Positions 21,056-61,339 of a stretch of DNA of 64,000 nucleotides are shown piece by piece. The position numbers and the translations under genes are program-made. The notes beneath the pieces were generated by a model. The model did not search any database and was not told where the DNA came from. It worked only from the letters and a program-made list of their open reading frames with translations. Location: NCBI GenBank assembly GCA_000004985.1, contig GG738860.1. One strand, given 5' to 3'. Source of the stretch: Naegleria gruberi. Its lineage: Eukaryota. Each line of letters begins with the position of its first letter. Position 1 is the first letter of the stretch.

Positions 21056-21138
21056 GCCCGCGTAGCAGAGTGGTCAAATGCGTAAGACTTAAGATCTTAT
21101 CCCGAATGGGTTCGTGGGTTCGAACCCCACCGCTGGCA
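21056..21138 (+). tRNA. tRNA-Leu (anticodon UAA), type II with long variable arm
   Basis: GCCCGCG-TA-GCAGAGTGGTCAAATGC-G-TAAGA-CTTAAGA-TCTTA-TCCCGAATGGGTTC-GTGGG-TTCGAAC-CCCAC-CGCTGGC-A. Anticodon stem TAAGA/TCTTA is perfect and the loop CTTAAGA gives anticodon TAA. T-arm GTGGG/TTCGAAC/CCCAC is perfect. Near-identical to vertebrate tRNA-Leu-TAA in the D-loop, anticodon and T-arm. The acceptor stem has one C:T mismatch at 4:69. A T6 tract follows 4 nt after the discriminator. Confidence 0.8.
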
Positions 21139-22273: not shown

Positions 22274-24075
22274 ATGAACAAACCAACTGAAAGTGTTTCG
22301 AATAATTCTAATAATTATCACTTTACTAATGAAAGTAGTAGTAGTGGAAATACTCCTTTGAATCCTCTTTCAATATCAGCCGAAATACCAAATTCGTACC
22401 ATGTTGAACGGCACAAACTTTCGAATAATAATTCAACAAGTATACGAAATATAATTACTTCATCAGTTGGTGCTAATTCTAATCATCCTACCATGATTGC
22501 ATCTCATAACTATTCTGCTAATGGAATTGATGAACATTCTTCCATCCTACCTTCCATACATAATACTCCTTTCCAATCCAATGAGAATGTTTACTATTCG
22601 AAACCAATCTATTCCAATTTACAATCAAATTCTCCATTTCCCTCATCTTTAGCAATAACAACGATCCATGCTAACAACAACATGCAGAAAGAAAGACTTC
22701 CATCAATTAATCATGTTGTAAATTCTTCATCATCAACTATTCGAAACTCAACATCTCCTCCAACACCATTTATCTCCTCACAAGTTTCACATTCACAACA
22801 CTTTAATCAACACCTTTATGTTGAGGATCATCAGCATTCACAGTACATGATACCATCCAACCAAAATAATCAACTTTCGAATAATAATCAATTACATCCT
22901 TTTGGTGATTCCAACAAGATTTCAGTATCACCATCAGCAGGAAGTCTCGTTTCTTATCAATCACCACCACCGACACAACATGTACCATCAAACTCCATGA
23001 TTAGAAACAATTCGAAACCAAATTTGCATGTCATGAACAATAGCCACAGTAATAACAATCTTTCAAATTTTGATCAAACCAATACTTCAACTACTACCTT
23101 AATTCATCATCACCATCATCAACAACAACAATCACCAATACATGCCACACCTATCATCAATACCCAACAACAGCAACAACAAACACAACAGCAGGATAAT
23201 TATTATCACGATTTTTATGTACCCATTAAAAAGACCAACAAGTTAATGATGAACAACAATTTAAATAATCCAAATTCCCAAAATGCAACTCAAAGTGCAT
23301 CATCATCTTCATCTGCTTCTTTAATAATGAATTCTTCTTCCAATGCTCATAATAATACAACTTCTTCAAATGGAGTGCCCCTAAAATGTTCATTGTGTGA
23401 TCGTGGCATTACGAAACGATATTGGGTAAGAGATTGTAATGTGGATGTGATGAAAACATTTTCAAAGAATGAAGGTATGTTATTGTTGTGAATTTTGTGG
23501 ATGGCTTACTTGTTTTTAATATTGTTTTTTTGTAATGCCGTTGTAATGTGTGAAAAAAATGAATTTTAGCACTTGTTGGAAATTCATGTTGTAAAGCATG
23601 TTATACAAAAGCAAGAAAAATTATCAAAGCTCAAAAACCACCCTCCTCAACCTCAACCTCAACCTCAACAAATATTGATAATTCATCAGTAACAACCAAT
23701 ATAGTAGCAGCAGCAGTAGATAATAGTAATAACATCGTGAATAATTCCTCCTCTGGTGAGAATGATTCCTCATCAAATAATGTAAATAATAATGTTTCAA
23801 TTCAAACAACGACTAGTTCTGTGATGAGTGGAAATTCCACTCCAGAATCACAACAGAGTTTCAATTATCTTAATCTAGGAAGAAATTTGGAGAATTCATT
23901 GATTTCAGGTGAAGTTTTGGAAGAATTGGGTCTTGTCTTGACAAGATCAGATAGTTCAAGCTATTCATCGAGTAAGATTGGAAAAGATAAGAAAAAGTAC
24001 AATCTTCAAGTGGATAGAACTGAGGAAGAGAATGAAATTGTATTCAATATCAAGTTAAAAGTTAATAAGAAATGA
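22274..24075 (+). CDS. Asn/Gln/His/Ser-rich low-complexity protein with a Cys-x2-Cys motif at its single intron; putative zinc-finger transcription factor (2 exons, splice model uncertain)
   Basis: ORF 22229..23491 (first ATG in frame at 22274) plus ORF 23737..24075. Model A: exon 22274..23425 (...CSLCDRGITKRYW | GTAAGA donor), intron 23426..23568 (acceptor ttttAG), exon 23569..24075 in frame. Contains poly-H/poly-Q (HHHHHQQQQ..., QQQQQQTQQQ) and a (CAACCT)n tract. See finding on the alternative GTATGT donor and the GATA-like half-motif. Confidence 0.5.
23641..23670 (+). repeat. (CAACCT)n microsatellite (about 4.5 units) within or adjacent to coding sequence of the zinc-finger gene
   Basis: cctcaacctcaacctcaacctcaaca. 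It lies at the point where two reading frames of that gene diverge. Confidence 0.7.
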
Positions 24076-24076
24076 T

Positions 24077-25909
24077 TTATAATTTACTTCTCTTTTCTGC
24101 TGGAGTTTTGTAACCATCACTTTCGTTACCAATGAGATAATCAGTGGCATTGATTTGCTTGATGAGTTCAATCTTTTCCTTCGAAGGGAGAAGATTGAGT
24201 GGGTGATCTTCAACGAAAATCTTGAGAATTGAAACATTTCTGTTTGAATTCTTTGACATGCAATGTTCCAAAAGGAGAACGGCAACTTGAATGTGAGCAA
24301 TTGTGAAGGCCAAATCTCTTGCAAAGGTTGTCAATACAGCTTGATTCTTTTGGTTGGTTTTGAGATAGTCGACAACATCGTGAACTGCCTTGGTAATTCC
24401 CTTTGAAATGTGAGATACATTGGAAGATGAAGGTGAATTAGCAACACTAACAGCACGGTCAACCCAACTCTTCAAAGTATCTTGACCAGATTCAGGATGT
24501 AACAAAACTCTCAATACATCCAATGAGAGAATATTTGTTGTTCCTTCCCAAATACTCAAAACTTGAGCATCTCTTAATAAACGAGGCATTCCAGAGTCTT
24601 CAGTATAGCCAACACCTCCCAACATTTCCAATCCTTCACTCACAACTTGGAGAGATTTCTTACCAGTGTACAATTTAATGATTGGAATACACAATCTGAG
24701 AATTTGCCTTTCATTTTGATTGGCAATTCCACATTCCTCCTTACCAAGTATTCTGACACAATCCATAACAAAATGCAAACTACCAGTAGTTTCTGCTACC
24801 ATCTTTGAGAGCCATCTCAAATGGAGAGTATTGTGTGCCAAGATTTGTCCCTTATTTACAATTCTTTTTGATGCAAAATCTTGAGCAATATTTACAGCTC
24901 TTCTCATTTTGGCAACAGCACAAATTGAGTTGTAAATTCTAGTTACATTAATCATGGTTGCAATGAATTTAACACCTTGTCCACGAGGACTGATAAGAGT
25001 GGCCTTTGCATTTTTGAGTTCAATTTCAGATGTTGGCATGGCCTTGGTTCCCAACTTGTTCTTGAATTTGTGGAACAAGAGGCCATTCCAATTTTGTCCA
25101 GTTTCATCTTTGGTCTTTAAGAGGAATAGAGAAACCTTATCATCAACTTTTCCAGTCTTTTCATCTTTGATTTTAGCAAGCAAAAGAGCCATTGCAGAGT
25201 CAGAACTACCAAACCACTTGAAACCATTGAGAAGATAATCGAAATCTTTAACTTGAGTGGCAATAGTTTCACATCCAGAAACATCAGATCCACCACTCTT
25301 TTCTGTCATCCACTGATTACTAGTCCAGAATTGTTCAGGATCTCTTGATGTTAAATGTTGTCTACACTCAATCATTAATTGTTCTCTCTTCTTTTCAGCA
25401 TCAGTTAAATTAGTTTTCTTTCTTTCAGAATTGAGAACAGTTTCCAATAATTTAGAAGCTCCATCACCCATAGAAAGAGGACAAGTCTGAACAGCACAAC
25501 TTGGATCATACAAATACAATTTGGCAAATTGATAAACTCTAGCAAATTGACGAAACCTGTCACGCTCGTATCCCAAAGCAATAAGTCCTTCTCTTGCACT
25601 AGTATCATACAATTCCTTCCAAGAAGAATGCATCTCAATTCTGTCAACTCTGTTATGCCAAGCATCATAATGAATTAATTTTGGTTCATTTCTCTCAGCC
25701 AAATCAGACCATTTCCAAATAGTTGATGAAACTTTATCACCAAAAGCAGTCAAATCCTTCATAATATCATCTCGGATTGTGTTATTCTTCTTATCCAGAG
25801 AAAATATGTAACGATCGAGAATTTCCAACAAGGCTTGATCTTCAAGGAATGTATTTCCCAATGTTGGTGCTTCCAATTTGAAACTCTTTTCAAGTGAGAA
25901 AGAAGACAT
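24077..25909 (-). CDS. Acyl-CoA dehydrogenase/oxidase superfamily protein, AidB-like (about 610 aa), intronless
   Basis: C-terminal ACAD signature ...GGVGYTEDSGMPRLLRDAQVLSIWEGTTNILSLDVLRVL... and an N-terminal region like AidB / ACAD10-11 C-terminal domains. The likely start is the second Met (MSSFSLEKSF, 25909); the ORF-track Met at 25957 sits inside an AT-run. The stop at 24077 is 1 nt from the stop of the convergent gene ending 24075. Confidence 0.65.
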   Translation of the reverse strand: MSSFSLEKSFKLEAPTLGNTFLEDQALLEILDRYIFSLDKKNNTIRDDIMKDLTAFGDKVSSTIWKWSDLAERNEPKLIHYDAWHNRVDRIEMHSSWKELYDTSAREGLIALGYERDRFRQFARVYQFAKLYLYDPSCAVQTCPLSMGDGASKLLETVLNSERKKTNLTDAEKKREQLMIECRQHLTSRDPEQFWTSNQWMTEKSGGSDVSGCETIATQVKDFDYLLNGFKWFGSSDSAMALLLAKIKDEKTGKVDDKVSLFLLKTKDETGQNWNGLLFHKFKNKLGTKAMPTSEIELKNAKATLISPRGQGVKFIATMINVTRIYNSICAVAKMRRAVNIAQDFASKRIVNKGQILAHNTLHLRWLSKMVAETTGSLHFVMDCVRILGKEECGIANQNERQILRLCIPIIKLYTGKKSLQVVSEGLEMLGGVGYTEDSGMPRLLRDAQVLSIWEGTTNILSLDVLRVLLHPESGQDTLKSWVDRAVSVANSPSSSNVSHISKGITKAVHDVVDYLKTNQKNQAVLTTFARDLAFTIAHIQVAVLLLEHCMSKNSNRNVSILKIFVEDHPLNLLPSKEKIELIKQINATDYLIGNESDGYKTPAEKRSKL

Positions 25910-28083: not shown

Positions 28084-30117
28084 ATGGAAAATTCTCAACA
28101 ACAATTTAAAATTGATGTTTTTATTAGTATTAAATCATCATCGAGTCAATATATTAAGAATCATCCACTCTTGTTGAGTTATATATTAATACAATTGGTA
28201 GAACAATCAGAGAAAAAGACACTTGTCTTTACAAATTTCAATCATGTTTTGAAAACTAGTATTTCTCTTCAACAAGAAAGTGTACCAATTGAATTATCAT
28301 TCCGAAGTTTAATTGATAATATTCCAGTATCATCATTTGATTATTTATTCCCGTATACATTGACTCTGGATTCGCCATTGATATATCACTTCAAAGTTTT
28401 GGATGAACACAATGAAGGAAATAATGAATCAACAAATTCGTCATCATCACAAAAGAGAAAGAAATTCTCATGTGGAGGTCTTCAAAAAGAATATGAACAA
28501 TTGAAGAAAACATTGAAACAAATGATTGATTTACGAGAGAATAATGTCAGTGCTGGTGTATTGATACATGGTTTGTCTGGTGTAGGAAAATCACTTCTAG
28601 TTAATACAGTTTTACAAGATTTATTCCAAGAATCGTGTCAACAATCGAATAGTGAAGAAGAAGAACCAAGCATTTTCACAATACACGCATCAATGTTTTC
28701 TAGTAAGGTCTATGGTCAAAACGAAGCCAAAATGAAACAATTCTTCCAAAACCCAAACGAAGAAGGGCATTCTCAATTAATTTATTCATACAAATTTATT
28801 ATACTGGAAGATTTGGAGCAATTAGCTCCATCCAATCAAGTTATACAGGAGAGTTCACTAATGTCAAAGGGTGGTAAAAGATTGGTGAGCACTTTACTTC
28901 ATTGCTTGGATGATTGTCCAAAAAAGAGAATAATTGTAATAGGCATTACAAACCAATTCTCAAAGATTGATTCATCCATAAAGAGGTCAGGAAGATTGGA
29001 TCAAACAGTTATCGAGTGTCCAATTCCAGGAGAAGCAGAGAGACTCAGCATTTTAAAATGTATTTTTGAACAATGTAGTTTGGTAGCTGATGAAAAAGTT
29101 GTAAATAAGGTTGCTGCTGTCACACATGGTTTTGTTGGATCGGATCTGAAATCGTTATGTAATGAGGCTATTCTCCAATATTTCATGAAAACAGAGCCAG
29201 TAGCTCTCGAAGAAGAACAATCAATGATATCTTTAGATTATGAATTTTTCGAGAATGCTCTTGTTCATGTGAGGCCAAGTGCTATCAGACACATCCTTGT
29301 TGAAGTACCAAAAGTTTACTGGGATGATATTGGAGGTCAGGACAATGTCAAACAAGCTCTCAAAGAATCGATCGAATGGCCTTTCAAACACTCTGAGCAC
29401 TTTAAACGAATGAAAATAAGAGCACCAAGAGGTGTGCTTCTTTATGGACCTCCAGGTTGTTCAAAAACGCTGATGGCTAAAGCTTTAGCTACTGAGGCTA
29501 AATTGAACTTTTTGGCTGTGAGAGGTCCTGAGCTGTTCAGCAAATGGGTTGGTGAAAGTGAAAGAGCAGTCCAACAAATTTTCTCAAAGGCAAGACAAGC
29601 TGCTCCAAGCATTATCTTCTTTGATGAGATTGATGGCTTGGGAGTGGAAAGAGGAAGTGGAGGTAACTCTGTTGGTGATAGAGTTCTGTCACAATTACTC
29701 CAAGAATTGGATGGTATTGATCCTTTACAAGGAGTAACGGTAATTGCTGCTACAAATAGACCTGATTTATTGGATAAGGCTCTGCTTAGACCTGGCAGAA
29801 TTGATAGAATGCTCTACGTATCACCACCAGATGAAGCTGCAAGAAGAGAAATTGTGAAAATCCAATTGAAGAAAATGGCAAATATTGTCTCACCAGAGGA
29901 AGTGGAAAAGATTGTTCAATCGACAACTAATTACAGTGGTGCTGAAATGACAGCTCTCTGCAGAGAAGCAGCTTACATTGCACTCCAAGAAGATATCCAC
30001 GCTCAACATGTAGAGTTCAGGCATTTTGAGGAAGCTGTCAAATCAGTTCTTCCAAGAATTACTAAGGATATGCTTGAATTTTACAAGGAGTTTGCCAATA
30101 AAAACAGAGCAGATTAA
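28084..30117 (+). CDS. Two-module AAA+ ATPase (677 aa) with a degenerate D1 and canonical D2 (NVL / SPATA5L1 / Afg2-like)
   Basis: D1 has Walker A GLSGVGKS but a poor Walker B. D2 reads VYWDDIGGQDNVKQALKESIEWPF...GVLLYGPPGCSKTLMAKALATEA...IIFFDEIDGL...ATNRPDLLDKALLRPGRIDRMLYVSPPDE, i.e. classic Walker A/B, second region of homology and arginine fingers. Intronless. Confidence 0.75.
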   Translation: MENSQQQFKIDVFISIKSSSSQYIKNHPLLLSYILIQLVEQSEKKTLVFTNFNHVLKTSISLQQESVPIELSFRSLIDNIPVSSFDYLFPYTLTLDSPLIYHFKVLDEHNEGNNESTNSSSSQKRKKFSCGGLQKEYEQLKKTLKQMIDLRENNVSAGVLIHGLSGVGKSLLVNTVLQDLFQESCQQSNSEEEEPSIFTIHASMFSSKVYGQNEAKMKQFFQNPNEEGHSQLIYSYKFIILEDLEQLAPSNQVIQESSLMSKGGKRLVSTLLHCLDDCPKKRIIVIGITNQFSKIDSSIKRSGRLDQTVIECPIPGEAERLSILKCIFEQCSLVADEKVVNKVAAVTHGFVGSDLKSLCNEAILQYFMKTEPVALEEEQSMISLDYEFFENALVHVRPSAIRHILVEVPKVYWDDIGGQDNVKQALKESIEWPFKHSEHFKRMKIRAPRGVLLYGPPGCSKTLMAKALATEAKLNFLAVRGPELFSKWVGESERAVQQIFSKARQAAPSIIFFDEIDGLGVERGSGGNSVGDRVLSQLLQELDGIDPLQGVTVIAATNRPDLLDKALLRPGRIDRMLYVSPPDEAARREIVKIQLKKMANIVSPEEVEKIVQSTTNYSGAEMTALCREAAYIALQEDIHAQHVEFRHFEEAVKSVLPRITKDMLEFYKEFANKNRAD

Positions 30118-30133
30118 TATCCAAAATTGTTTT

Positions 30134-31558
30134 TTAATAGCTTTGTGGATTCCATTTTGATTTTCCAGAAATAATATCTTCAACATTGTGAGCAAATTCA
30201 TGAGGAACTTCACCATATTGAATTGACAAAATTCTGTCCCATAATTTCATAGCCAATGATTCTTCTTTTGGAGGCACTGGAATTGGATATTCCTTTCCTT
30301 GATAACTGATAGCATTGATTGGAGCAACAACACAAGCAGTACCAGCTCCGAAAGATTCAAGAATTCGTCCATTTTCGACATCCTTGATAAAATCTTCCAT
30401 AGTATAAGTAACTTCTCTAGCAGGTTGTTTGAATTCATTCTTAACAATATGAAGGACAGATGAACGTGTGACACCTGGTAAAATGACTTCTCCCAATGGT
30501 GGTGTAATCAATTCCTTTTCACCATTATCTGCAATTCTATAGAAGAAAATGTTCATTGTACCAACTTCAGTAATTTGATGGTCAGCTCCGAAAAGCCAGA
30601 GTACTTGACTGTATCCCTTTTCAATGGCTTCTAATTGTGGCATGATTGTAGGACCATAATTAGCACCAACTTTAGCATTACCAGTACCACCTGGGAAAGC
30701 TCTCACATATTTTGGATCAGCAAGTAATTTGACTGGAGCAAAACCAGACTTGAAATATGGACCAACTGGAGAACAAATCACAAATAATTTAGCATTATTT
30801 GGTGGCAAGACTCCCAAAGTACGTTCAGTACTAATCACTGTTGGACGAATGTAGAGAGAGTAACCCTTCTTAGCTGGAACCCAATCCTTTTCAACCTTGA
30901 CCAACTCAGCCATGCATTTTATGAATTCTTCTCCTTGGAAATTCTTCATAAATATATTCCGAAAGTGTTTTTATCATTTGTATCATTGTATTGTTTTTGG
31001 AGGTTGGGTAGTGTCAAGTAATTATCATCAGCACAATGATATTAAAATTAAATTAGAAAAATTGTTAGATTATTTGAAAATTCCGAAATTAAAACATACT
31101 GGTAAACCCAATCTTGCACAAGATCTATTGAGTCTGTTTGAATTCATTTCTGGTCTGAACAAAAAGACGTCTTCTCCATTCTTGTAAGCCTTCAAACCTT
31201 CAAAGCATTGAATAGCATAGTGCAGAGATGAACAAGATGGTGGAAGAGTTAAATCATGATATGGAACAATCTTTGGATTACTCCAACCCTTTTCTGAATT
31301 CCAATCAACTTCAAGCATATGATCTGTAAATTGTTTACCAAAGACAAGACCTTCCCAGGCAGGTTTTGTAAGTGGATTTGTTGTTTTTTCAATAGTCAAT
31401 GATGTATGAAGAAAATCACCATATGGACCCTTTCTAATCGAACATTTATCGTCCTTCAATTCATCAACTTGTGTCTTATGGAATGACCTAGAACAGTTGA
31501 ACAAAATTCGTTGTTGGTTAACTCTATTACAAGTGGAAGTAATCGATTTTTTGAGCAT
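30134..31558 (-). CDS. Branched-chain-amino-acid aminotransferase (BCAT, class IV PLP enzyme); 2 exons
   Basis: Exon 1 31558..31100 (...FRPEMNSNRLNRSCARLGLP | GTATGT). Intron 31099..30944 (acceptor ...atgaAG). Exon 2 30943..30134 (NFQGEEFIKCMAELVKVEKDWVP...YIRPTVIST...GGTGNAKVGANYGPT...GTMNIFFY...LPGVTRSSV...GAGTACVVAP). Phases agree with the ORF-track frames. Confidence 0.85.
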
Positions 31559-36439: not shown

Positions 36440-36664
36440 ATGGTCACAAAAAGAGATATCCTCTCCCTCTACCGAAGGATTTTAAAAACCGGAAATGAAA
36501 CAATCAGATTTACCAACAAGGAATACTTCAAAAGAAGAGTAAGAGAAGAATTTGAAATGGCTGAAGAAATTGTCGGAGATAAGAAACAAAGAGATTTAAT
36601 TAGAGACAAAATGTATGGCAAAGGAGTTGAATTTTTGGAAAAGAAAATTGGTGGAATTATTTAA
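36440..36664 (+). CDS. LYR-motif (Complex1_LYR) family small mitochondrial protein (74 aa)
   Basis: MVTKRDILSLYRRILKTGNETIRFTNKEYFKRRVREEFE... carries the L-Y-R tripeptide plus downstream F, typical of LYRM proteins. ATG at 36440, 94 nt downstream of the preceding gene on the same strand. Confidence 0.55.
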   Translation: MVTKRDILSLYRRILKTGNETIRFTNKEYFKRRVREEFEMAEEIVGDKKQRDLIRDKMYGKGVEFLEKKIGGII

Positions 36665-36722
36665 ATTATATTTGTGATGATGAGAAAATGGTTAAAACAT
36701 GTTTTACAAGTGTTTTAGATTT

Positions 36723-38489
36723 TTACTTTCTCTTTTTTGAAGATCTTTGAGAGTTATCTGAAGAATCGGAACTTCTCTTCTTGTCTTGTTTCGTTTTCAA
36801 TAAACCTTTGGTTGGTGAAAATGTTAAATCGACTGGTAAACTTGGAACAATATCCTTCTTATTGAAAGTTTTAACTTGATTCTTTTCGAGGTCAATTATA
36901 ACCTTCTTCTTTTCTTGTTTTTCTTCAGAAGAGGTAGCAGTACTTGTGATTGGCTTCTTGTCCTTGAGCAGCTTTTTCACGGATTTCACCTTACTTAACA
37001 ATTGATTACGTTTCTTTTCTTCAGCAGCAGCTTCTTCTCTTTCCTTTTGTTCCTTTTCTAATTGAACTTTCTTTTCTTGTTCCAATCTTTCTTGTTCTAA
37101 TTTTTCTTGCTTTTTCTTTTCCTCTTCTTCCTTCTTCTTTTGTTCGGTTGCCTTACTATTATCCTTCTTTTGTTTCTTTTCTTGTGGCGTTGTTTCTACT
37201 TTCTTTTCAGTTTGTTTCTTTTCAGGTTGTTGCTTCTTTTCTTGTGGTTTCTTATTTTCATTAACTTGTTGAGCTTTCTTTTCTTGTTGTTTCTTCTTCC
37301 TTTCAATCTTAGCTTGTTCTTTTTGAGATACAGTAGTTTCAACTTCTTCCAATTCAGAATATAAATCATCGAGAGTAATAATTCTAGTCTTGAATTTTTC
37401 ATAGTATTCAACACAGACATCCGAGTTTTCATATCCAGTCTTGTATTTTTCGAATTCCTTGACAATACGTTCGATATTGACAGGTAAAGGTCTATCTTTA
37501 ACAATTTGTCTGACATTACCAAATTCATCAAGTGGTAAATCTTCATCATCATCTTCATCATCTTCCATAGCATCTCCATTTTCTTCGGTTTCTTCCTCCT
37601 CTTCCTCTTCTTCAGGTTTACTTTCACCTTCAACTGATTGATATTGAGCAAGTAAATCGAACATTTCTTCCTTGTATGTCTTTTTGATACTGTTATTTTC
37701 TGTAGAGGCAAAATCTTTGATGAAGAATTGGACGAATTTCATCAATGCATCTTCATTGAGATGATAGTCAGAATCATTTTCAACTTGAGGACCACCATAT
37801 TGAACCAATTCCAAGAAGAATAATTCTGCAATGTGAATTTGCAAAGATGCTAATAATTTACGTTCCTCATTATTGAAAATACCATCTTCTAAAATGAATT
37901 CAATAAATTCCTCAACTGCTTCTAGTTTGTATTGAGCTGTCTTGTTCAAAAACACGAATGCTTGTTGCATTACTTTTCTCACTAACATTAAATATTTGTC
38001 CATTCTGTGTTTGTCAAGTCTTGGCCATGTTTCAAAGAGTTCATCAAAGAAAGCTCTCAAAAAGGCAATAGGTAATTCGTGTGGAGATGATTCGCCTCCC
38101 TTCACGTGGTGAATACATTCTGCCAAGAGTTGAGCCATTTCGTGTTGTTTAAATTCACCATCACACAGCCAAAATCCGTACAATGCACCTTTCCACAATT
38201 TTCTAAAATCAATAAAATTAGTATCAAGATCCAACTTGTTGAATTTAGTTTCCTTCAAAAATGTTGGGAATCTTTCGGCAGCTCTTGTTCTAAAACCTTC
38301 ATCGGTAGCAGCAAGATCCTTGGTGAGTTTTACTACATTTTCTCTATGGATTTTTAATTGTTCCTCTGTGAATGTATTTTCCTCAACTTTGGATTCCGAT
38401 TTGCTTATCTTCTTTTGTTTGTTGTTACCATTAGTGTTATTATTGGCTTGTTTATTGTTGTTGTTATTAGCTTTTGACTTTTTACCCAT
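36723..38489 (-). CDS. Nucleolar Nop52 / RRP1-like rRNA-processing protein with a long K/E-rich charged tail (588 aa)
   Basis: The N-terminal block ...FRKLWKGALYGFWLCDGEFKQHEMAQLLAECIHH...FLRAFFDELFETWPRLDKHRMDKYLMLVRKVM resembles the Nop52 domain (LFKGLFYCMWMSDKPLxQxELA...). It is followed by an acidic stretch (EEEEEEETEENGDAMEDDEDDDEDL) and a KKQQEKK/EKKKQEK repeat tail (nt about 36990-37330). Confidence 0.6.
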   Translation of the reverse strand: MGKKSKANNNNNKQANNNTNGNNKQKKISKSESKVEENTFTEEQLKIHRENVVKLTKDLAATDEGFRTRAAERFPTFLKETKFNKLDLDTNFIDFRKLWKGALYGFWLCDGEFKQHEMAQLLAECIHHVKGGESSPHELPIAFLRAFFDELFETWPRLDKHRMDKYLMLVRKVMQQAFVFLNKTAQYKLEAVEEFIEFILEDGIFNNEERKLLASLQIHIAELFFLELVQYGGPQVENDSDYHLNEDALMKFVQFFIKDFASTENNSIKKTYKEEMFDLLAQYQSVEGESKPEEEEEEEETEENGDAMEDDEDDDEDLPLDEFGNVRQIVKDRPLPVNIERIVKEFEKYKTGYENSDVCVEYYEKFKTRIITLDDLYSELEEVETTVSQKEQAKIERKKKQQEKKAQQVNENKKPQEKKQQPEKKQTEKKVETTPQEKKQKKDNSKATEQKKKEEEEKKKQEKLEQERLEQEKKVQLEKEQKEREEAAAEEKKRNQLLSKVKSVKKLLKDKKPITSTATSSEEKQEKKKVIIDLEKNQVKTFNKKDIVPSLPVDLTFSPTKGLLKTKQDKKRSSDSSDNSQRSSKKRK

Positions 38490-42515: not shown

Positions 42516-44107
42516 ATGATTAAAAGTAAAAGTTTAATTTCTAGTGTTCGGAACTTTAACCATCAATTTAGAGTGAAGGGATTAATTAATTCATGTTTGA
42601 AAATTAATGCAAATTTTAATAGTCAACACGAATCAACCTTCCGATTTTTTTCTTCATCATCAATGAATAGAAATCGAAATGATGATTTTCTTTACATATT
42701 GAAAATTAGAGGACAAGAACAACCAAATAATTGTGATTCTTTGAGAAAGTTTCCAACTCTTTATTTGGTGGTTGCCCTTTTGGTAGCTGGCTATTCCTAT
42801 TCAATTATTTCATCCCTTCTTTCGTGTAAGTAAATCACCCATATTCTCTGAAAATTCACACAACAAATAAGCTGATATGGTTTTGGATAAGATGATTCAG
42901 GAAGAGAATGGAGAAATTAATTTACAAAAGGCCTCTATCATGCCACTCAGTTGTAAGTTATTACTTGTAATATTTTGTAATCATTTAATGGAATTTTATA
43001 GTATTTGCCCTGTTGAAAATTAAAGAAAAGTATATGGGCAATATTGAGAAAGATCTCGAGTCAAACGATGCAATTAAGAGAAGGAATGCCATTCAAATGA
43101 TTTATCAAATGTGTTTGGATAGATCATTGGCTAAATCAATAATTTTGGAAACTAATTGTCTTGAACGTTTGGTAAATCTGGTACCATACGATAAACAATC
43201 AAACGTATCAAGAGATGAGAGTGACCTAATTATTGGAGTTTTGAAAATGATGAGCTCTATTGAAAATACTCACGAATTCTTATTGGATAATCTTAGTAAA
43301 TGGGTTAAACCATATAGAATACGAAAGGAGTTGCACTCTATAGAGGCATTGGATAATAATTATATTACAATTATATACAATATTCTATCTACACAAAAAT
43401 CCAGACAATTATTAACTGACGAAAGGATTGAGAAACTAATTCAATTGACATTTGAAATATCCAAGGCAAGCACAGATAAGAGAGTGATAAACTTGGCAAA
43501 TTATTCCACTGAAATGCTTGTTAGACAATCTAAGGGAGAACCAGATGATGGTCAAGCAGATTCACTCATGAAAGATTATACTGAAAAGTATGAAATTTTC
43601 AAATTCCTTTCAAACAACATCTCACTTCCATTGCTAGCCTTTGGTTATGCCTTTTTGAGATATAAATGGAGAATTAATAGACAAGGATACAATCATTTTG
43701 GATTCAAGGCTCAAAATCTCAATACACTGTCAATTTACAACTCGTTGAAGAGTGCAGTGGTTGTAAGTGCAATGGCATGGTCTGTAACTTCTTTGGATTT
43801 TTTCGAGTATAGACAGGGGTTGAAAGATCACTCTAATTGCTCAACCAATGAGGAGCTATTTAACAGACTCAAGACTAGGGCATATAGACAGGAAGTTGAA
43901 AAGGTAGCTCAAAACTTCTTGTTCCCATTATTCTTGGCATGGGTTTTGGGTAGAGTGGAATTTATCATACTACCATACATTTTACTTCAGGCAAGCAGTT
44001 CATCTAAACCAAGTAGTTTATTAGAAAATTTAATAGATCTTCCCCCTCAGTATGTAGAATCTCAATTGAATTATATTCAAACAAGCATTGAGACTGAAAA
44101 GAAATAA
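42516..44107 (+). CDS. Multi-pass membrane protein of unknown function; 3 exons
   Basis: Exons about 42516..42825, 42872..42952 and 43002..44107, with GTAAGT donors and introns of 46 and 49 nt. All exons are phase 1 and consistent with ORF 43013... The true start may be a downstream Met (MNRNRNDD... at about 42663), because the first ATG lies only 30 nt from the divergent gene's start. Hydrophobic helices include TLYLVVALLVAGYSYSIISSLL, LPLLAFGYAFLRYKW, AVVVSAMAWSVTSL and FLFPLFLAWVLGRVEFIILPYILL. Confidence 0.5.
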
Positions 44108-44112
44108 ACCCT

Positions 44113-45696
44113 TTACCATTCATCATCTGAATCAGTATCAGAATCCTCTTCGTCATGGATACCAGTGTTAGAGAACTTTTTCATGAGATATGACTTGAAA
44201 CCTTCCTTTTCATTTTCTGTAAAATCAGTTACAGGTGGAGGTGTTGGATTCTTCAAATTGTCCTTAGAGAAAGTCTTGATTTCAGAAAGGAAGTCAGCAG
44301 GCTTTGATGGAAGAGGTGGCTTTGAGACTGGAGGGGAGGTTGGAGTGGCCTTTGGTTTGACCTCAACCTTAATTGGACCTCCTCCCATTGGTGGTGGTGG
44401 TGGAATAGCTCCAACAGGAGGTGGTGGTGGAATAGATCCTCCCATTGGGGGTGGTGGTGGTACAGCAAAACTTCCTCCTCCCATAGGTGGTGGTGGTGGT
44501 GGAATAGATCCCATTGAAACTGGTGGTGGAGGTGGAATACTACCTGCTCCTCCATCATAGTCATCTGAAACATATGAAGTCATTGGTGGAGGTGGTGGAA
44601 CTGATCCTCCCATTGGTGGAGGTGGAGGAACAGATCCCATAGATACAGGCATAGGTGGAGGTGGAGGAACACCACTGGATGGTGAAGAAACTCCAAAAGG
44701 TGGTGGAGGAGGTGGAACTCTTCCTGAAGATGCATCACTAGAGACTGTTCTAATCTCATCAACAATTTGATTGTCATCTTCATGTGCCTTTTGTCTTTGT
44801 TTGGCAACTTTCTTTTCATACTTGTGCATGAGTTTTTGGAGACGTTCTTGAGTCTTTGGATCATTAGCTTCAACACCCATACCTCCCAAAACGTCCAAGT
44901 ATTCAGTTGGAAGACCGCTAGCTTCAAATTGGCCAGTTTCATGATTGATACCAACGTGAGCAGTGTTTTGGAAATTCTTTACAGAGCCCATTCTAAAGTT
45001 TGATCTTGAAGGTCTATTGTCAACTGGTTCTTCGACTGGTTTGACTTCTTCCTTCTTCAAGAACTTATCCTTGACACCTCTAAAGAAACCAAAGACACCA
45101 CCTGCTGCCTTTTCTTCCTTCTTTGGTACAGGACTACTTGGAGAAGATGTTTGAGGGAGTGGATTCTTTGGCTTGTCATTGGATGGCTTACTGATTGATT
45201 CAGGAAGTGGTGGTGGATTACTTGTTGCATTTGATGATACACTAGTTGGTGGAGAAGCAGAGACAACATTAGAGAGACGGTTGTTAACAAAGCTGCTAAA
45301 CTTTGAAGCAGCAGTCTTACTATTCAAGGCAACATTGATACCAACAATTCTATCATCGCTTTCAAAGGAAATAAAATTGTCATTCAATTGTTCAAATTGG
45401 AATTGTTCATAACATTCATGAGACCAAGTAACTTGATTGGTTTCAACATTGATTAGTTTCAAACAAAAGACATTGTTCATCAAATCCTTTCCGAAATAAA
45501 GGGCTCCCCAAATACCAGTATAAGACCATTCTTCTTCACCTTGCATACTTTCATAGATTGAAACAACAGCGCTTTGTTCAACACTCTTTTAAAAATATTA
45601 AGCGAATGATAATTTTATAAATCAACCTACCAAACCCTTAGTGGCAGTGAGAACAACACTAACGTCCAAAGGATCATATAATTCCTTATTGCTCAT
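44113..45696 (-). CDS. WASP-family actin nucleation-promoting factor (WH1/EVH1 - basic - CRIB/GBD - polyproline - WH2 - acidic); 2 exons
   Basis: Exon 1 45696..45631 ([22 protein letters not shown] | GTAGGT), 45-nt intron, exon 2 45585..44113. WH1: ...[61 protein letters not shown]...[60 protein letters not shown]. Nine PPPPP(P)M/V runs. WH2-like [19 protein letters not shown]-terminal acidic tail [13 protein letters not shown]. Confidence 0.85.
44320..44700 (-). repeat. Coding polyproline repeat array (PPPPP(P)-M/V-GGS/SMGS units) inside the WASP gene
   Basis: At least 9 iterations of (cca cct cc)n on the coding strand. Seen on the + strand as ggtgg(t/a)gg(t/a)gg(a/t)... repeats. Confidence 0.8.
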
Positions 45697-45963: not shown

Positions 45964-47549
45964 ATGAGCAACAGCCAACGAAAAAGTAAGCAATCAACAG
46001 CAGCAGCAGCTCCTCATCAGAAGCTTCTTCATCACAACAGCAACGGGATGAAAGTCTACTATTGTTAGCCTACGAGGGTGAGAATATGAAACGATATCCA
46101 ACAAGAAGAGCATCACAATTAGCAAATGAAGCCTTGGAAATTGATAAGACAGATGATGAAGGTTTGTTTTTTCATCAATTAGGAAATTAAATTGAAACTC
46201 TAATAGATTATATTGACGAGGAAGCAGCTTCATCTAGTGATTCCTTTGATGATGAGGAAACTCTTGAAGCTGACTATGAAAGTGATTCAGATTCACAGAA
46301 AGAAAAACCATCATCTAAACGTAAGTCACTCTGTCAAAATATCAATCAATATTAATTTCATTCGTTTACCTTATTAACAACAGGTTCTCAAATATCAAAA
46401 CCTGCTAGACATGTATTAATGTCATGGTTGGAGGAACACTTTGAGCATCCCTATCCTGATGATAACCAAAAAGAAGAATTGATGAAAAAGACCGGTCTCA
46501 CCATTAATCAAATTAATATTTGGTTTGTAAATTCAAGAATGAGAGTGTGGAAGCCTAGGCATCACGATTCACAAATTACCAAGACTGAACCAAATTCACC
46601 AAATGGAAATTCTGATGGTTCAGGAAGTAAGCCAAGACAAGAGAAGAAAATAGACATGTTGAATGATGAATTGAAATCATCACTTGCAGCTCGAATTAAT
46701 CCAAACAATGCCAATGTTACCAGGACAAATATTGTGGGAAGTTTGCCTAATGGTCTACCAACTCCATCCACAGTCATCTGTAGAGGAAACTTACCTAAAG
46801 AAGCTGTTGATTCATTGCTCAAGTGGTTATTCGATAACTTTAGTCATCCATATCCTTCAGATGCAGAGAAAGATGTATTGGCTGAAGAAACAAATCTTAC
46901 CTTAACACAAGTCAACAATTGGTTCATCAATGCAAGAAGGAGAATATGGAAACCAATTCTCCAAAAAATCAAATCAAAGGGAATGGATAAAGATGAACTC
47001 CTTTCTCAAGGAAAACTATCAGAAGTTGCCAAATCATTCTATAAGGACCAGAAAATTGGGGAAGAGGAACCAACAAAGAGGAAATCTAAAAGCTCCAAAG
47101 GAGGTTACAGCTCAGATCATGAAGAATCCACACCTAAAAAGCAAAAGAGGGACAACTCTCTCCTCATACCTCAAGACCTGATGACCCATACAGAGCCAAC
47201 CATTACAAGAGAATCAACGATCAAAACTAGACCAAAAATTGAAAATAACAAATTAACTCATAGAGAGCTATTCATTGATCAATACAGACTCTCAATGGAG
47301 AATCAAAAGCTTGAGGAAGATATTCATCAAGTCTATGACAGGTATGCCTCAGTTTTGGAAAATATCAGTGAAAAGAATGTGAAACTTCTCTCCCACATTA
47401 CCCTCCTCGAACAAAAGCAACAACAAATAAGATTGAATAATGAACTCTTGAAGAAAGAGGTTGATTTATTGAGAAGTAGTAAGGTGGTGAATTCTAATCC
47501 TTTCAACGTGGGTTCATTCCTCGTGGAAGAATTAGGATCTTCAATGTAA
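45964..47549 (+). CDS. Protein with two tandem TALE-class homeodomains plus a C-terminal coiled coil; 3-4 exons
   Basis: Exons: (optional 45964..45985), 46086..46161, 46207..46320, 46384..47549, all phase 1 with GT..AG introns of 45-63 nt. HD1 is ARHVLMSWLEEHFEHPYPDDNQKEELMKKTGLTINQINIWFVNSRMRVWKP. HD2 is KEAVDSLLKWLFDNFSHPYPSDAEKDVLAEETNLTLTQVNNWFINARRRIWKP. Both have the three-residue TALE insertion (H-P-Y-P) and the WF-x-N-x-R helix 3. Confidence 0.75.
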
Positions 47550-47554
47550 ATTAT

Positions 47555-48268
47555 TTACAAATTTCTGCATGCAGTGACAACATCAGGATGATGCTCAAGG
47601 TAGTACTTTGAAGCAAAATCAATAAACTCACTTGTTGAACCAATTTCTTGATAGTTGTCACCATTTTCTAGAATGATATATGGTGACAAGAATTGTTGTG
47701 ACCATTTACTCCACACAGATTTAAATGGTTTGACAATCCACGAGCTATCAGTATCAATTTTACTCTTCAAATCTAAGACAGCATTGTAGAATTGTTCATG
47801 GTTTGGGTGTGATTGATAATTATTGGTTACTTTTGGTGAATAGTTTGGTAACTTTTCAGCAATACACTTGGCAATATTAAAGCTCTTGAAGCTATCTTGG
47901 TTTTCTGTATTTACATCTGCAATAATGTGAAAGATAGATTTACTGTTTGCCAATCTATCAGTCAGATATTTATCTTTTCCGAGATGACTATAAAATTCCT
48001 TTCTCTTGTAGAGGATAGATGGATTACTAAGTGATCGTTTGATGATGAGTTGATAAAAGATTATTTGAATAACAACGATCGCCAGAATAATCGATAGTTT
48101 AAATGTTCTGGATGAATTCCACAAATTATCCAATAAGCGGCTGAGAGGAGGAAGTGGTTTTTCCTTGTTGCTATTTGATAATGTTGCTGATTTTGAATAT
48201 GACGATTCCGAGAGGGGAATATCAGCAGAGTGAAGATGTGATCGTGAGTGTGTTTGTGGCAGAGTCAT
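47555..48268 (-). CDS. Hypothetical single-TM protein (237 aa)
   Basis: ORF with a hydrophobic segment FKLSIILAIVVIQIIFYQLII near residues 55-77 and no recognisable catalytic motif. Its stop codon is 5 nt from the stop of the convergent homeobox gene. Confidence 0.45.
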   Translation of the reverse strand: MTLPQTHSRSHLHSADIPLSESSYSKSATLSNSNKEKPLPPLSRLLDNLWNSSRTFKLSIILAIVVIQIIFYQLIIKRSLSNPSILYKRKEFYSHLGKDKYLTDRLANSKSIFHIIADVNTENQDSFKSFNIAKCIAEKLPNYSPKVTNNYQSHPNHEQFYNAVLDLKSKIDTDSSWIVKPFKSVWSKWSQQFLSPYIILENGDNYQEIGSTSEFIDFASKYYLEHHPDVVTACRNL

Positions 48269-53318: not shown

Positions 53319-53354
53319 ACAAGAGATGACATTTGACGACATCAAAATTAAAAA

Positions 53355-55572: not shown

Positions 55573-56700
55573 ATGAGCGATAAAGAATCCACACCAAGTC
55601 CATCACCATTATCATCAAATAATTCTCCACCTGTTGCCACAACAACTACCACAACAACAACATTACCAAGTGGTCCTAAACAAGATAATACCAAGAGTTT
55701 TCTTGTCCAATCATCACCACTTGTTTCCTTCATATCGGGAGCAGTTTATGGATGTACCTCCATTGCTGTAGGACAACCTCTCGATACAATTAAAACACTC
55801 ATGCAATCTAGTGCTACTATTAATCAAAATAATGCAACAACATTGGGTGTGATTAAATCAATTTATAAGAAGAATGGTTTTATGGGATTTTATCGTGGAT
55901 CTCTTCCACCTTTGTTTACTGCTTCAGTGTTGAGAAGTTTGCAATTTGGTGGATATGCAATGGCATTACAATATATTATGGAAAATAATGTGTTTTCTGA
56001 TAAGGATTTCAGAAAGGAAAATTTACATGTTTTGGAGGAGAAACCATTTAGTTTGCATCCTGAAATGTTTGCTGCTGGCTGTTTTGGAGGTGCTGCTAGA
56101 GCCATTGTTGGTATGTTTCAATTTTCATGGTCATGTGTTTATTAATAATATTCGAATTATTTCCAAAACATTTTAATAGAAACCCCTGTCGAATATATGA
56201 AAGTCAGATTCCAAACTGAACAACCTTGGAAATTTACTGAATTATATCGTGGATTTACTGCAACACTGTTACGTAACATGTTCCTTTTGGGCAGTTTCTT
56301 TGTTTTTGTTGACTTTTTCACTCAAGAATATAGAAATTTACAAGTGAGACAACATTTGAAATCTCTTGCATCTGATGAAGAAAGAGAAAAGAGCAGAGGT
56401 CAATATTTCGATTTTGCAAAATTGAGTCCATTCTTTACAGGTGGTGTTTGTGCAACTTTGGCTTGGTGGTTAGTTTTCCCATTGGATGTTATTAAGAGTC
56501 AAATTCAAGCTATGAAACCTGATGAACAATTGGGCCTTATGCAAAGAATGAAACATGTTTCAAACACTTTGGGCTTCAGAGGATTTTTCAGAGGAATTGT
56601 ACCTGCTAGTGCTAGATCCATGTTGGCAAATGGTGTTTCAATGATTGCCTTTGCTTATGTTTCATCTCATCTCATTCAAAAATTGGAAAAGAAGGAATAA
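55573..56700 (+). CDS. Mitochondrial carrier family (SLC25) protein; 2 exons
   Basis: Exon 1 55573..56110 (...GAARAIV + g | GTATGT), 69-nt intron, exon 2 56180..56700. Three carrier repeats with signatures PLDTIKTLMQ, PVEYMKVRFQ and PLDVIKSQIQ. The N-terminal extension is Thr/Ser-rich. Confidence 0.85.
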
Positions 56701-56737
56701 ATTTATTCCCAATAAGTCATAAAAGAATGAATTGAAA

Positions 56738-60537: not shown

Positions 60538-61290
60538 ATGGCCTGGAGATGTTCTGGACAAAGTAATGCCGAACTGATTGCCAATCTGTTTAAATCCAAT
60601 ATCATTTCAAGTAATAGTGTCTCGAGGGCAATGTCTCGTACCGATCGTGCACTGTTTTGCAGGAGTGATCATCGAGATTATGCCTACTTGGATCAACCTC
60701 TTCCGATCGGAAATGATGTGACAATATCTGCTCCTCATATGCATGCCTATTGTTTGGAATTGTTGGAAGATCATTTGAAACCAGGAAATAGAGCAATGGA
60801 TGTTGGAAGTGGTAGTGGCTATCTTGTTGCTACTATGGCTGAAATGATGGCTCCACAAGTTGAACATGTGGTTGAAGGAACTAAAATTGTTGGCATTGAA
60901 TATTTGCAATCAATCTATTTATTTGGAAAGGAAAATATTGAAAAGGTTTGTTTGGTAATTATTTTGAATTTTGTAAATTAATTTTGAAAACAGTATCAAA
61001 AAACAAAGGATTTAATGAATCAAGGTATTATTGAAATGATTAAAGGAGATGGATGGAAAGGCTATGCTCAAGGAGGTCCATATCATGCTATTCATGTTGG
61101 AGCAGCTGCATCCACACTTCCTCATGCACTTGTTGAGCAATTGGCAAATGGTGGCAGATTGATCATTCCTGTTGGTGATATAGATCAACACTTGATGGTA
61201 ATTGATAAGGATATCAATGGCAAAGTCACCCAAAAGAAAGTAATGGGAGTGAGATATGTTCCTCTTGTCAACCCAACAAATTGTAAATAA
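60538..61290 (+). CDS. Protein-L-isoaspartate (D-aspartate) O-methyltransferase (PIMT/PCMT); 2 exons
   Basis: Exon 1 60538..60945 (...AYLDQPLPIGNDVTISAPHMHAYCLELL...AMDVGSGSGYLVATMA...ENIEK | GTTTGT), 48-nt intron, exon 2 60994..61290 (...GDGWKGYAQGGPYHAIHVGAAASTLPHALVEQLANGGRLIIPVG...). SAM-binding motifs I, II and III are all present. Confidence 0.9.
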
Positions 61291-61339
61291 TTGTAAAATA
61301 TTTGTACAAAATTAAAATAATTTATAATAAATTAAAGTG

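Follow-up and report, generated by a model that had tools for sequence, protein, structure and literature searches.

In a stretch of Naegleria gruberi nuclear DNA, genes on opposite strands run toward each other and end with as little as a single nucleotide between their stop codons, which raises the question of how two such genes form their mRNA 3' ends and whether their transcripts must overlap. The window, by which we mean the whole stretch of 64,000 nt that was analyzed (contig GG738860.1), consists of N at bases 1 to 14416 and has ~34% GC in the remainder. From the map of open reading frames (ORFs) and from reading the junctions, we found seven opposite-strand gene pairs with facing 3' ends and 1 to 58 nt between the stops:

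Junction 1, 24073..24079: GATA-type zinc-finger gene, plus strand, last exon ~23590-24075, TGA ending at 24075; ACAD11-like acyl-CoA dehydrogenase, minus strand, 24077-25909, TAA at 24077; gap of 1 nt.
Junction 2, 30097..30138: AAA-ATPase, plus strand, stop 30115-30117; BCAT, minus strand, stop 30134-30136; gap of 16 nt.
Junction 3, 36662..36725: LYR-motif gene, plus strand, 36440-36664; Nop52, minus strand, stop 36723-36725; gap of 58 nt.
Junction 4, 44017..44115: 364-aa conserved unknown gene, plus strand, stop 44105-44107; WASP-family gene, minus strand, stop 44113-44115; gap of 5 nt.
Junction 5, 47465..47626: TALE homeobox gene, plus strand, stop 47547-47549; 237-aa gene, minus strand, stop 47555-47557; gap of 5 nt.
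Junction 6, 56694..56740: mitochondrial-carrier gene, plus strand, stop 56698-56700; 2OG-Fe(II) gene, minus strand, stop 56738-56740; gap of 37 nt.
Junction 7, 61288..61342: PCMT gene, plus strand, stop 61288-61290; Sin1 gene, minus strand, stop 61340-61342; AT-rich gap of 49 nt.

The gap coordinates are the mechanical ends of the ORFs, and each junction was then read in the sequence. All six stop-to-stop distances listed in a preliminary description of this DNA (1, 5, 5, 16, 37, and 49 nt) are exact, and the LYR/Nop52 pair (36664/36723, 58 nt) is a seventh that it did not contain. Coding bases are not shared in any pair, the smallest gap being the one nucleotide at 24076, and these are thus not overlapping genes in the true sense. 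Tight convergence had been called pervasive, which holds for 7 of the 9 convergent spacers in the window, a small sample; these are ≤58 nt long, whereas the other two are wide, at 446 nt (19110/19557) and 315 nt (41597/41913). When hidden noncoding RNAs were sought for the two wide spacers, Rfam returned only a tRNA-Leu at 21056-21138. In contrast to the convergent spacers, only 1 of 17 tandem or divergent spacers is ≤58 nt (Fisher P = 4e-4). The convergent median is 37 nt, compared with 189 nt for tandem and 548 nt for divergent spacers in a first tally, and with one further tandem spacer added to that tally, convergent spacers come out shorter than the rest (Mann-Whitney P = 0.0018). Short convergent spacers therefore exceed chance. 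Tandem neighbors can also lie close, as at 53318/53355 (36 nt).

Gaps this short might be an artifact of annotation, and the preliminary description had allowed that mis-called terminal exons, with unrecognized 3' introns, could conceal stops that are really further apart; wrong reading frames would have the same effect. This has not turned out to be the case. The terminal stops of the tight pairs are not mis-called, and the genes are real and convergent, with 11 of the 14 C-termini backed by a motif at the terminus, by a domain extending to the end or nearly so, or by orthologues with the same end position. The last three residues of the ACAD11-like protein are the PTS1 signal SKL, and every orthologue has S[KR]L there. 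Its ORF and that of the AAA-ATPase have 100% identity over the aligned residues to annotated N. gruberi proteins, and both end exactly where the official proteins do. Three lineages keep the AAA-ATPase tail, FY[KR][ED]FA[NS]K[NH]R[AS](D). In the syntenic contig L003, the C-termini of both the LYR-motif gene and Nop52 are conserved, as is the tail of the 364-aa gene, and the acidic C-terminus of WASP (...DSDDEW) has an orthologous counterpart (...SSDEDW), the acidic stretch plus Trp being present in two species. The 237-aa gene shares its C-terminus with P0242 (65% identity, same end). A model joining 47555-48268 and 48429-50015 into one gene by an intron was rejected, as homologues of ~235 aa have the same start and end as the 47555-48268 ORF, which therefore stands alone. 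Among the domains, Mito_carr spans to residue 162 of the 167 of the mitochondrial-carrier protein, in the 91-residue PCMT protein the domain reaches residue 86, and in Sin1, of 738 residues, the PH domain reaches residue 711.

What could still speak for misplaced stops is that the remaining three ends, those of the GATA, TALE, and 2OG genes, have a long ORF as their support (376 codons in the case of TALE), and that the ACAD11 model in the public N. gruberi annotation includes a doubtful 48-nt intron, although an internal one. For the last exon of the GATA gene, ending at 24075, the frame is set by the second finger half. Moreover, any alternative terminal exon would need to sit antisense within the coding sequence of the partner. 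With these points added to the supported C-termini and to the two ends identical to official ones, an annotation artifact is scarcely credible.

How, then, are the 3' ends specified? Direct RNA sequencing of N. gruberi has identified AAUAAA as the top hexamer, 15 to 20 nt upstream of cleavage, and a median 3' untranslated region (UTR) of 39 nt (PMC11529991). The hexamer overlaps 11 to 13% of stops, termed "dual-use," which have a median 3'UTR of ~22 nt, and WGURAA is not considered a signal in this organism (PMC11529991). At the junctions described here, the stop of the 364-aa gene is inside AATAAA (44103-44108), and that of the mitochondrial-carrier gene likewise lies within AATAAA, where a perfect 16-nt palindrome, GGAATAAATTTATTCC (56694-56709), also gives a minus-strand AATAAA to the 2OG-Fe(II) gene. 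The BCAT stop is embedded in ATTAAA (30133-30138, minus strand) and falls within A[AT]TAAA in five species, and the facing AAA-ATPase has AATAAA at 30097-30102, within its last codons and 12 nt upstream of the stop. AGTAAA overlaps the stop of Nop52; at the end of ACAD11, minus-strand AGTAAA and TATAAA coincide in part with the codons for SKL and with the stop. Junction 5 is itself a palindrome, TGTAAAT-T-ATTTACA (47545-47559), and its first AATAAA copies, at 47621 (plus strand) and 47465-47470 (minus strand), are both antisense in the coding sequence of the partner. Of the hexamers in the spacer of junction 7, three are on the plus strand (ATTAAA, AATAAA at 61326, and ATTAAA) and one, TATAAA, is on the minus strand. 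Signals for both strands occupy one short zone at 30097-30138, 56694-56709, and 61300-61334. A shared palindromic poly(A) element was considered as a motif and rejected, since AATAAA-N(0-30)-TTTATT occurs twice in the window versus 1.65 times expected.

Dual-use stops, with AATAAA running across the stop, are found at 19110, 44107, 55484, and 56700, of which 44107 and 56700 belong to tight pairs, and AATAAA is located 3 to 4 codons upstream of the stops at 30117 and 41913. Most other partners in tight pairs have weak variants at the stop or none and are not of the dual-use type. At the junctions at 24075, 44107, and 47549, one or both partners are without a nearby canonical signal. For the WASP, TALE, 237-aa, and 2OG genes, the first AATAAA is 31 to 91 nt past the stop, antisense in the last codons of the partner; that of WASP (44017-44022, minus strand) falls within Ser-Leu-Leu codons of the 364-aa gene. 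The WASP, TALE, and 237-aa genes have no AATAAA or ATTAAA closer than +72 to +91.

Sense-strand AATAAA is purged from the coding sequence. Asn-Lys is written as AAT-AAA only 3 times in the coding sequence of the window versus 17.3 expected (P = 1e-6), with two of the three surviving codon pairs in the last six codons, and the pattern xxA-ATA-AAx is absent versus 6.6 expected. In the antisense direction, 49 copies of AATAAA are kept, and a transcript entering its partner therefore soon reaches a signal. TAA accounts for 23 of 26 stops, and the next base is A in 16 of the 23 (P = 4e-4), which hints at a broader use of NNUAAA than the AAUAAA class counted in PMC11529991.

We find these features best explained, with a probability of about three in four, by genome compaction together with poly(A) signals on or just before the stop or antisense in the last codons of the partner. 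Convergent spacers, having no promoter to house, would have been squeezed until the coding sequences nearly touch, and the squeezing would be tolerated because 3'-end formation in N. gruberi needs very little space. AAUAAA would serve as a strong signal in one of three positions: on the stop (dual-use UAA-A), a few codons upstream, or antisense in the last ~30 codons of the partner. In this proposal the stop-fused, metazoan-type AAUAAA is what permits the spacers to collapse, and with such placement a pair would share one short, two-directional 3'-end region. The mature mRNAs of a pair should then overlap tail to tail, by a predicted ~10 to 45 nt where both signals adjoin the stops and possibly by up to ~200 nt where the first AAUAAA sits in the partner gene. 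Several observations count against this explanation. The GATA-finger gene (stop at 24075) has no recognizable poly(A) hexamer within 500 nt downstream, the stop-site "signals" include the weak variants TGTAAA, AGTAAA, and TATAAA, and the back-to-back AATAAA...TTTATT layout shows no enrichment in the window.

The preliminary description had held that overlap of the 3' ends is obligatory at all six of its junctions. Two 3'UTRs must overlap once their combined length is greater than the gap. Published UTR lengths would make overlap unavoidable at the gaps of 1, 5, 5, and 16 nt, and to this extent the claim stands; at 37 and 49 nt, and across the range of 37 to 58 nt, overlap is predicted to be likely, not obligatory. 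The further statement that every one of these mRNAs must enter the coding region of its partner goes too far, given the pre-stop or on-stop AATAAA at 30097, 44107, and 56700, and cleavage is predicted to fall inside the spacer at the 37-nt gap, at the 49-nt gap, and for the AAA-ATPase gene. Tight control of poly(A) sites and antisense overlap, which had been offered as alternatives, both appear to apply: some partners look tightly terminated, whereas WASP, TALE, and the 237-aa and 2OG genes first meet AATAAA inside the partner.

A reading with no meaningful overlap would have each mRNA cut no more than a few bases past its stop, so that mature transcripts barely touch. The pre-stop or dual-use signals at the AAA-ATPase, BCAT, and two further genes fit such a reading, as do the short published median UTRs (22 nt for dual-use stops, 39 nt overall [PMC11529991]), and gaps of 37 to 58 nt leave room for two short UTRs side by side. 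However, gaps of 1, 5, and 5 nt would demand UTRs of ~0 to 3 nt, in conflict with the published signal-to-cleavage distance of 15 to 20 nt for on-stop signals, and the distant AATAAA or ATTAAA of the WASP, TALE, and 237-aa genes is also at odds with it. We consider cleavage at the stop throughout to be very improbable.

To what extent is the arrangement shared with relatives? The AAA-ATPase/BCAT gap measures 16 nt in N. gruberi, 1 nt in a related metagenomic heterolobosean (ERZ27315067 contig, L008), and 6 nt in Willaertia magna (L007). Between the 364-aa gene and WASP there are 5 nt in N. gruberi and 11 nt in ERZ contig L003, with the same dual-use AATAAA, and the LYR/Nop52 gap is 58 nt in N. 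gruberi and 24 nt in L003. A gap of 99 nt between the 364-aa gene and WASP in L003 was rejected: read on in the +1 frame, the sequence still encodes the conserved tail, so that the real gap is 11 nt and the metagenome contig probably contains a frameshift. On the basis of these comparisons, the tail-to-tail arrangement is old. The arrangement also has its exceptions, as a metallophosphatase gene lies between the AAA-ATPase and BCAT in N. fowleri and N. lovaniensis, and the neighbors of ACAD11 differ in N. fowleri and W. magna, where junction 1 is not conserved. Small samples lead us to expect that convergent spacers are most often under 60 nt in N. gruberi and W. magna and ~130 nt in N. fowleri and N. 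lovaniensis.

Age of this kind bears on whether the tight arrangement is itself selected, with 3' overlaps leading to double-stranded RNA or polymerase collision and so coupling the expression of the partners. The AAA-ATPase and BCAT genes are still 1 to 16 nt apart across N. gruberi, the metagenomic relative, and Willaertia, and so long-kept a junction could mean function instead of neutrality. An antisense AATAAA occurs 68 to 91 nt beyond the WASP stop in both N. gruberi and L003, though at different codons of the partner. Precedents from yeasts count in the same direction, with mRNA duplexes specific to convergent genes at short intergenic distance (PMC6993858) and interference between convergent genes mediated by 3'UTRs (PMC3900390). 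Against selection, partners such as the peroxisomal acyl-CoA dehydrogenase and the GATA factor, or PCMT and Sin1, have no functional relation, a metallophosphatase gene separates the AAA-ATPase from BCAT in N. fowleri and N. lovaniensis, ACAD11 has other neighbors in N. fowleri and W. magna, and gap lengths drift across species. The 36-nt tandem spacer shows that squeezing is not confined to convergent pairs, which argues for general compaction. Selection for coupled expression is thus distinctly unlikely. It is unlikely, though conceivable, that in N. gruberi and its relatives the ends of partners are co-encoded, with the signal of one gene written antisense in the final codons of the other, as the WASP signal within Ser-Leu-Leu codons and the service of GGAATAAATTTATTCC to both strands might suggest. 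Such ends would be long kept, as between Naegleria and Willaertia for the AAA-ATPase and BCAT, and the C-terminal codons and 3'-end signals of two unrelated genes would constrain each other and possibly couple expression. Under the compaction explanation that we prefer, the overlap is regarded as a passive by-product and not as a dedicated regulatory device. We infer this absence of a regulatory role, as we do the cleavage sites and overlap lengths, all of which are predictions.

In annotating or engineering Naegleria, the pathogen N. fowleri among them, one has to reckon with the fact that the DNA past a stop is often coding sequence of the neighbor and not a gene's own 3'UTR or terminator. 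C-terminal tagging or knockout of one gene may harm the poly(A) signal of its partner, and unstranded RNA-seq reads would be misassigned at such junctions. The finding opens no new question; with it, N. gruberi joins the eukaryotes whose promoter-less convergent spacers have collapsed, as a free-living species with a genome of medium size.

Tail-to-tail overlap as such is already well known from yeast, microsporidia, nucleomorphs, and Arabidopsis. Microsporidian and nucleomorph genomes are extremely reduced (~0.5 to 3 Mb), and their transcripts often cover whole neighboring genes; N. gruberi is free-living, with a genome of ~41 Mb. Overlapping transcription in these compacted genomes was reportedly described by Williams and colleagues in PNAS in 2005. 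Intergenic compaction pushes transcripts into neighboring genes there, as is predicted for the tight pairs here, but N. gruberi keeps its promoter-bearing spacers (divergent median, ~550 nt), and only the promoter-less convergent ones have collapsed.

In budding yeast, >20% of genes are in convergent pairs with short spacers and overlapping 3'UTRs (PMC3900390; PMC6993858), and bidirectional termination zones have been described there (bioRxiv 10.1101/2022.11.02.514956). The likeness extends to tail-to-tail coding genes and, as predicted for Naegleria, to one 3'-end zone shared by both strands and to 3'-overlapping mRNAs. Unlike in yeast, the Naegleria spacers are far tighter (1 to 58 nt), and in place of degenerate yeast elements there is an AAUAAA of metazoan type that in many cases is fused to the stop. 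Sense and antisense transcripts of Arabidopsis convergent pairs use one common poly(A) region, as proposed for Naegleria, but those overlaps are long and experimentally mapped (PMC3032780), while the Naegleria overlaps are predicted and mostly short.

The closest precedent for the signals themselves is the description of ultrashort 3'UTRs and dual-use stop/poly(A) signals in Giardia and N. gruberi (PMC11529991). AAUAAA over UAA at 19110, 44107, 55484, and 56700 is of the same kind and fits the published 11 to 13%. An explicit account of convergent 3' overlap in Naegleria was not found in our literature search, and the searched text of PMC11529991 deals with neither convergent neighbors nor transcript overlap; the present finding is the consequence of those short 3' ends for gene pairs. 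Seen beside these systems, tight convergent ends are what one would expect of a densely packed protist genome whose 3' ends are very short.

Seven of the nine convergent gene pairs in the window have stop codons no more than 58 nt apart. Six had been placed in a preliminary description, with stop coordinates and gaps that the ORF map and the junction reads reproduce exactly; the seventh, between an LYR-motif gene and Nop52, had been overlooked.

Tight convergent pairs in the window (stop positions; distance between stops)
24075/24077, convergent, GATA gene and ACAD11-like acyl-CoA dehydrogenase (ORF 24077-25909, minus strand), 1 nt
30117/30134, convergent, two-domain AAA-ATPase and branched-chain aminotransferase (BCAT), 16 nt
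36664/36723, convergent, LYR-motif gene (36440-36664, plus strand) and Nop52, 58 nt
44107/44113, convergent, gene for a 364-aa protein and WASP-family protein, 5 nt
47549/47555, convergent, TALE homeobox protein and gene for a 237-aa protein, 5 nt
56700/56738, convergent, mitochondrial carrier and 2OG-Fe(II) gene, 37 nt
61290/61340, convergent, PCMT and Sin1, 49 nt

In the gene map, convergent spacers (n = 9) measure 446, 1, 16, 58, 315, 5, 5, 37, and 49 nt, two of them (446 and 315 nt) wide. Tandem spacers are 286, 524, 603, 94, 189, 36, 88, and 160 nt, and divergent ones 160, 1322, 167, 717, 562, 548, 872, 309, and 383 nt. Convergent spacers run shorter than the tandem and divergent ones combined (Mann-Whitney p = 0.0018), and spacers of ≤58 nt occur in 7/9 convergent cases versus 1/17 others (Fisher p = 4e-4). 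Coding sequences do not overlap in any window pair, the smallest gap being 1 nt.

Mis-called terminal exons, which the preliminary description had named as evidence that would refute it, are not what motifs, domains, and orthologue ends indicate. The ACAD11 protein ends in KRSKL and its N. fowleri, Willaertia magna, and metagenomic orthologues in SRL or SKL, the peroxisomal signal PTS1, whose position is obligatorily C-terminal. The AAA-ATPase tail is kept in three lineages (FYKEFANKNRAD, FYREFANKNRSD, and FYKDFASKHRA, each running to the stop), the C termini of BCAT orthologues differ in position by a few residues at most, and WASP has an acidic-plus-tryptophan C terminus (DSDDEW in N. gruberi, SSDEDW in the metagenomic contig L003). 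No more than five residues lie between the Mito_carr and PCMT domains and the C terminus, and the PH domain of Sin1 extends to residue 711/738. Homologues of the 237-aa protein are ~235 aa long, the closest having the same end position, and the 364-aa protein's tail (stop 44107) is kept in a related contig. As an intron splits the GATA-type zinc finger (CSLCDRGITKRYW before it, LVGNSCCKAC after it), the frame of that gene's last exon is fixed, and ~160 codons are open up to its TGA. A long ORF is the sole backing for just three ends, those of the GATA, TALE, and 2OG-Fe(II) genes.

Positions 1-14416 are N (scaffold gap or padding); the real sequence, 14417-64000, has ~34% GC, and its ORFs are eukaryotic genes with few, short introns, among them also importin-beta and a DUF4116 repeat protein. 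The sole ARAGORN tRNA gene, also the sole Rfam match at gathering score, is

21056-21138, plus strand, tRNA-Leu(UAA)

An annotated N. gruberi protein has 100% identity to the AAA-ATPase ORF. The ACAD11-like ORF matches a "predicted protein [Naegleria gruberi]" at all aligned residues, and the two differ solely in that the public model (594 aa) is without the 16 residues VLNSERKKTNLTDAEK, in frame in the genome at about 25360-25410 (minus strand). By these two matches the window is nuclear DNA of N. gruberi. The N. fowleri, W. magna, and metagenomic orthologues all have residues that align with this 16-residue segment, and the 48-nt intron of the annotation is probably an error. The 364-codon ORF (43013-44107, plus strand) has a syntenic metagenomic orthologue with 41% identity. 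Among 5.8 billion database proteins, none from N. gruberi is identical or nearly so to its product, whereas other N. gruberi proteins of the window are present; it looks like a real gene absent from the public protein set. Its homology reaches upstream of the first ATG (43034), so that the gene may begin earlier or have a further exon at its 5' end.

In published direct RNA sequencing of N. gruberi, AAUAAA ranks first among the poly(A) hexamers and lies 15-20 nt ahead of the cleavage site; there is an upstream UGUA element and a U-rich downstream element, and true sites are told from others mainly by AAUAAA identity (PMC11529991). The median 3'UTR is 39 nt, and the 11-13% of stops that overlap AAUAAA (dual-use stops) have a median UTR of 22 nt (PMC11529991). 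The window fits this picture. TAA accounts for 23/26 stops and is followed by A in 16/23 cases (background A 0.33; p = 4e-4); four stops (19110, 44107, 55484, and 56700) have AATAAA across them, two more (30117 and 41913) have it 3-4 codons ahead, and the BCAT stop lies inside A[AT]TAAA in 5/5 species. Within coding sequence, sense AATAAA is almost nil versus 49 antisense copies. AAT-AAA for Asn-Lys is found 3 times versus 17.3 expected (p = 1e-6), two of the three within the final six codons of their genes, and the xxA-ATA-AAx pattern 0 times versus 6.6 expected, a strong codon-pair avoidance across the window's coding sequences (e.g., 30097, 41919, and 38451). The only clearly internal sense copy lies near the Nop52 5' end (38451).

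From the published signal-to-cleavage spacing we predicted 3' ends at the junctions. For AAA-ATPase and BCAT, each cleavage site would fall inside the 16-nt spacer or right on its border, giving an overlap of ~12 nt. The carrier mRNA is predicted to end within its 37-nt spacer, and the 2OG-Fe(II) mRNA, using AATAAA at 56702-56707, would end ~20 nt into the carrier coding sequence. The 364-aa gene's mRNA may end ~17 nt into WASP, for which the first AATAAA (44017-44022) lies in its partner's Ser-Leu-Leu codons and predicts a 3'UTR of ~110 nt; the metagenomic WASP orthologue has an antisense AATAAA 68 nt beyond its stop, in a different partner codon. TALE and the 237-aa gene carry UGUA on each stop, and since either one meets an AATAAA only 72-85 nt into its partner, their overlap may approach 200 nt. 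The GATA gene has only AATAAG, ahead of its stop, and neither AATAAA, ATTAAA, nor a common variant occurs in 24076-24576 (plus strand), the 500 nt downstream, all antisense to ACAD11, so that no recognizable hexamer accounts for the 3' end of this mRNA. ACAD11 has only AGTAAA and TATAAA, overlapping its SKL and stop codons. One perfect palindrome (GGAATAAATTTATTCC, 56694-56709) and another palindrome (TGTAAAT-T-ATTTACA, 47545-47559) sit exactly on junctions, but as back-to-back AATAAA/TTTATT is not enriched across the window, we treat them as anecdotes.

The preliminary description held that every one of these mRNAs must enter its partner's coding region. This is borne out in part. Overlap of mature mRNAs should be unavoidable at gaps of 1-16 nt, whereas at 37-58 nt it is likely but not obligatory, and an mRNA whose signal lies ahead of or across its own stop need not run into the partner's coding region.

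Orthologous loci were compared in N. fowleri (L001, L004), N. lovaniensis (L006), and W. magna (L002, L007), and two contigs of one metagenome (ERZ27315067; L003, L008; 39% GC), from a heterolobosean relative, are syntenic with the window.

Junction gaps in related genomes
AAA-ATPase/BCAT: N. gruberi 16 nt; metagenome (L008) 1 nt; W. magna 6 nt
AAA-ATPase/BCAT in N. fowleri and N. lovaniensis: metallophosphatase gene between, its stop 166 and 108 nt, respectively, from the BCAT stop
LYR/Nop52: N. gruberi 58 nt; metagenome (L003) 24 nt
364-aa gene/WASP: N. gruberi 5 nt; metagenome (L003) 11 nt

AAA-ATPase and BCAT abut in N. gruberi, the metagenomic organism, and W. magna; the metallophosphatase gene (L004 12310-13326; L006 12265-13331) was either inserted in the one lineage or lost in the others, in both cases at a very tight junction. 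The 364-aa gene/WASP gap in L003, 99 nt as called, was rejected: at about 7085-7100 the orthologue stops early (after EPFSH), and the +1 frame carries the conserved tail YLQDQYKYIVENVDHGKKQ on as far as a TAA at 7186-7188. A frameshift in the contig, a 1-nt indel from assembly error or of recent origin, is indicated, and with it a real gap of 11 nt. AATAAA lies across this gene's stop in L003 also. Other annotated convergent gaps are 23 and 59 nt in W. magna and 52 and 163 nt in the metagenomic contigs. With the metallophosphatase/BCAT gap counted, those of N. fowleri are 52-421 nt (median about 140) and those of N. lovaniensis 108-377 nt (median about 130). Tight gaps are common to N. gruberi, the metagenomic organism, and Willaertia and weaker in the N. 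fowleri/N. lovaniensis lineage, in small samples. In the latter two species (small samples), each of the three stop codons occurs and TAAA predominates less, parallel to the wider convergent spacers.

The long conservation of the AAA-ATPase/BCAT junction could speak for a regulatory role of tight tail-to-tail junctions. Such spacing is not specific to convergent pairs, however, and we give this role a low probability. The stop at 53318 is followed after 36 nt by the next ATG (53355), with ATTAAA (53347-53352) 2 nt ahead of it, and at 48269-48287 (minus strand) AATAAA occurs three times, in copies that overlap or adjoin, directly ahead of the ATG at 48268. At these sites (53316-53357, 48268-48290) upstream mRNAs probably end inside the next gene's 5' coding region. 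Compaction extends beyond convergent pairs and, because same-strand neighbors are squeezed too, general streamlining is favored over a dedicated antisense mechanism. In the 872-nt "divergent" WASP-TALE spacer, a plus-strand AATAAA is followed 30 nt on by TTTATT (45855-45896), a possible trace of short transcripts missing from the annotation, or of TALE exons further upstream.

For N. gruberi itself, short 3'UTRs and dual-use stops have been described before; the literature searched gave no explicit account of the consequence for convergent pairs in Naegleria. The finding is of practical use in annotation and in genetic manipulation and is a modest scientific surprise, as tail-to-tail overlap is well documented in other eukaryotes, namely yeast, Arabidopsis, microsporidia, and nucleomorphs. 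Overlapping transcription in the latter two was reportedly described by Williams and colleagues in 2005. In Saccharomyces cerevisiae, >20% of genes lie in convergent overlapping pairs, and short spacers go along with interference and mRNA duplexes (PMC3900390, PMC6993858); yeast also has bidirectional termination zones (bioRxiv 10.1101/2022.11.02.514956), while in Arabidopsis poly(A) regions are common to both genes of convergent pairs (PMC3032780).
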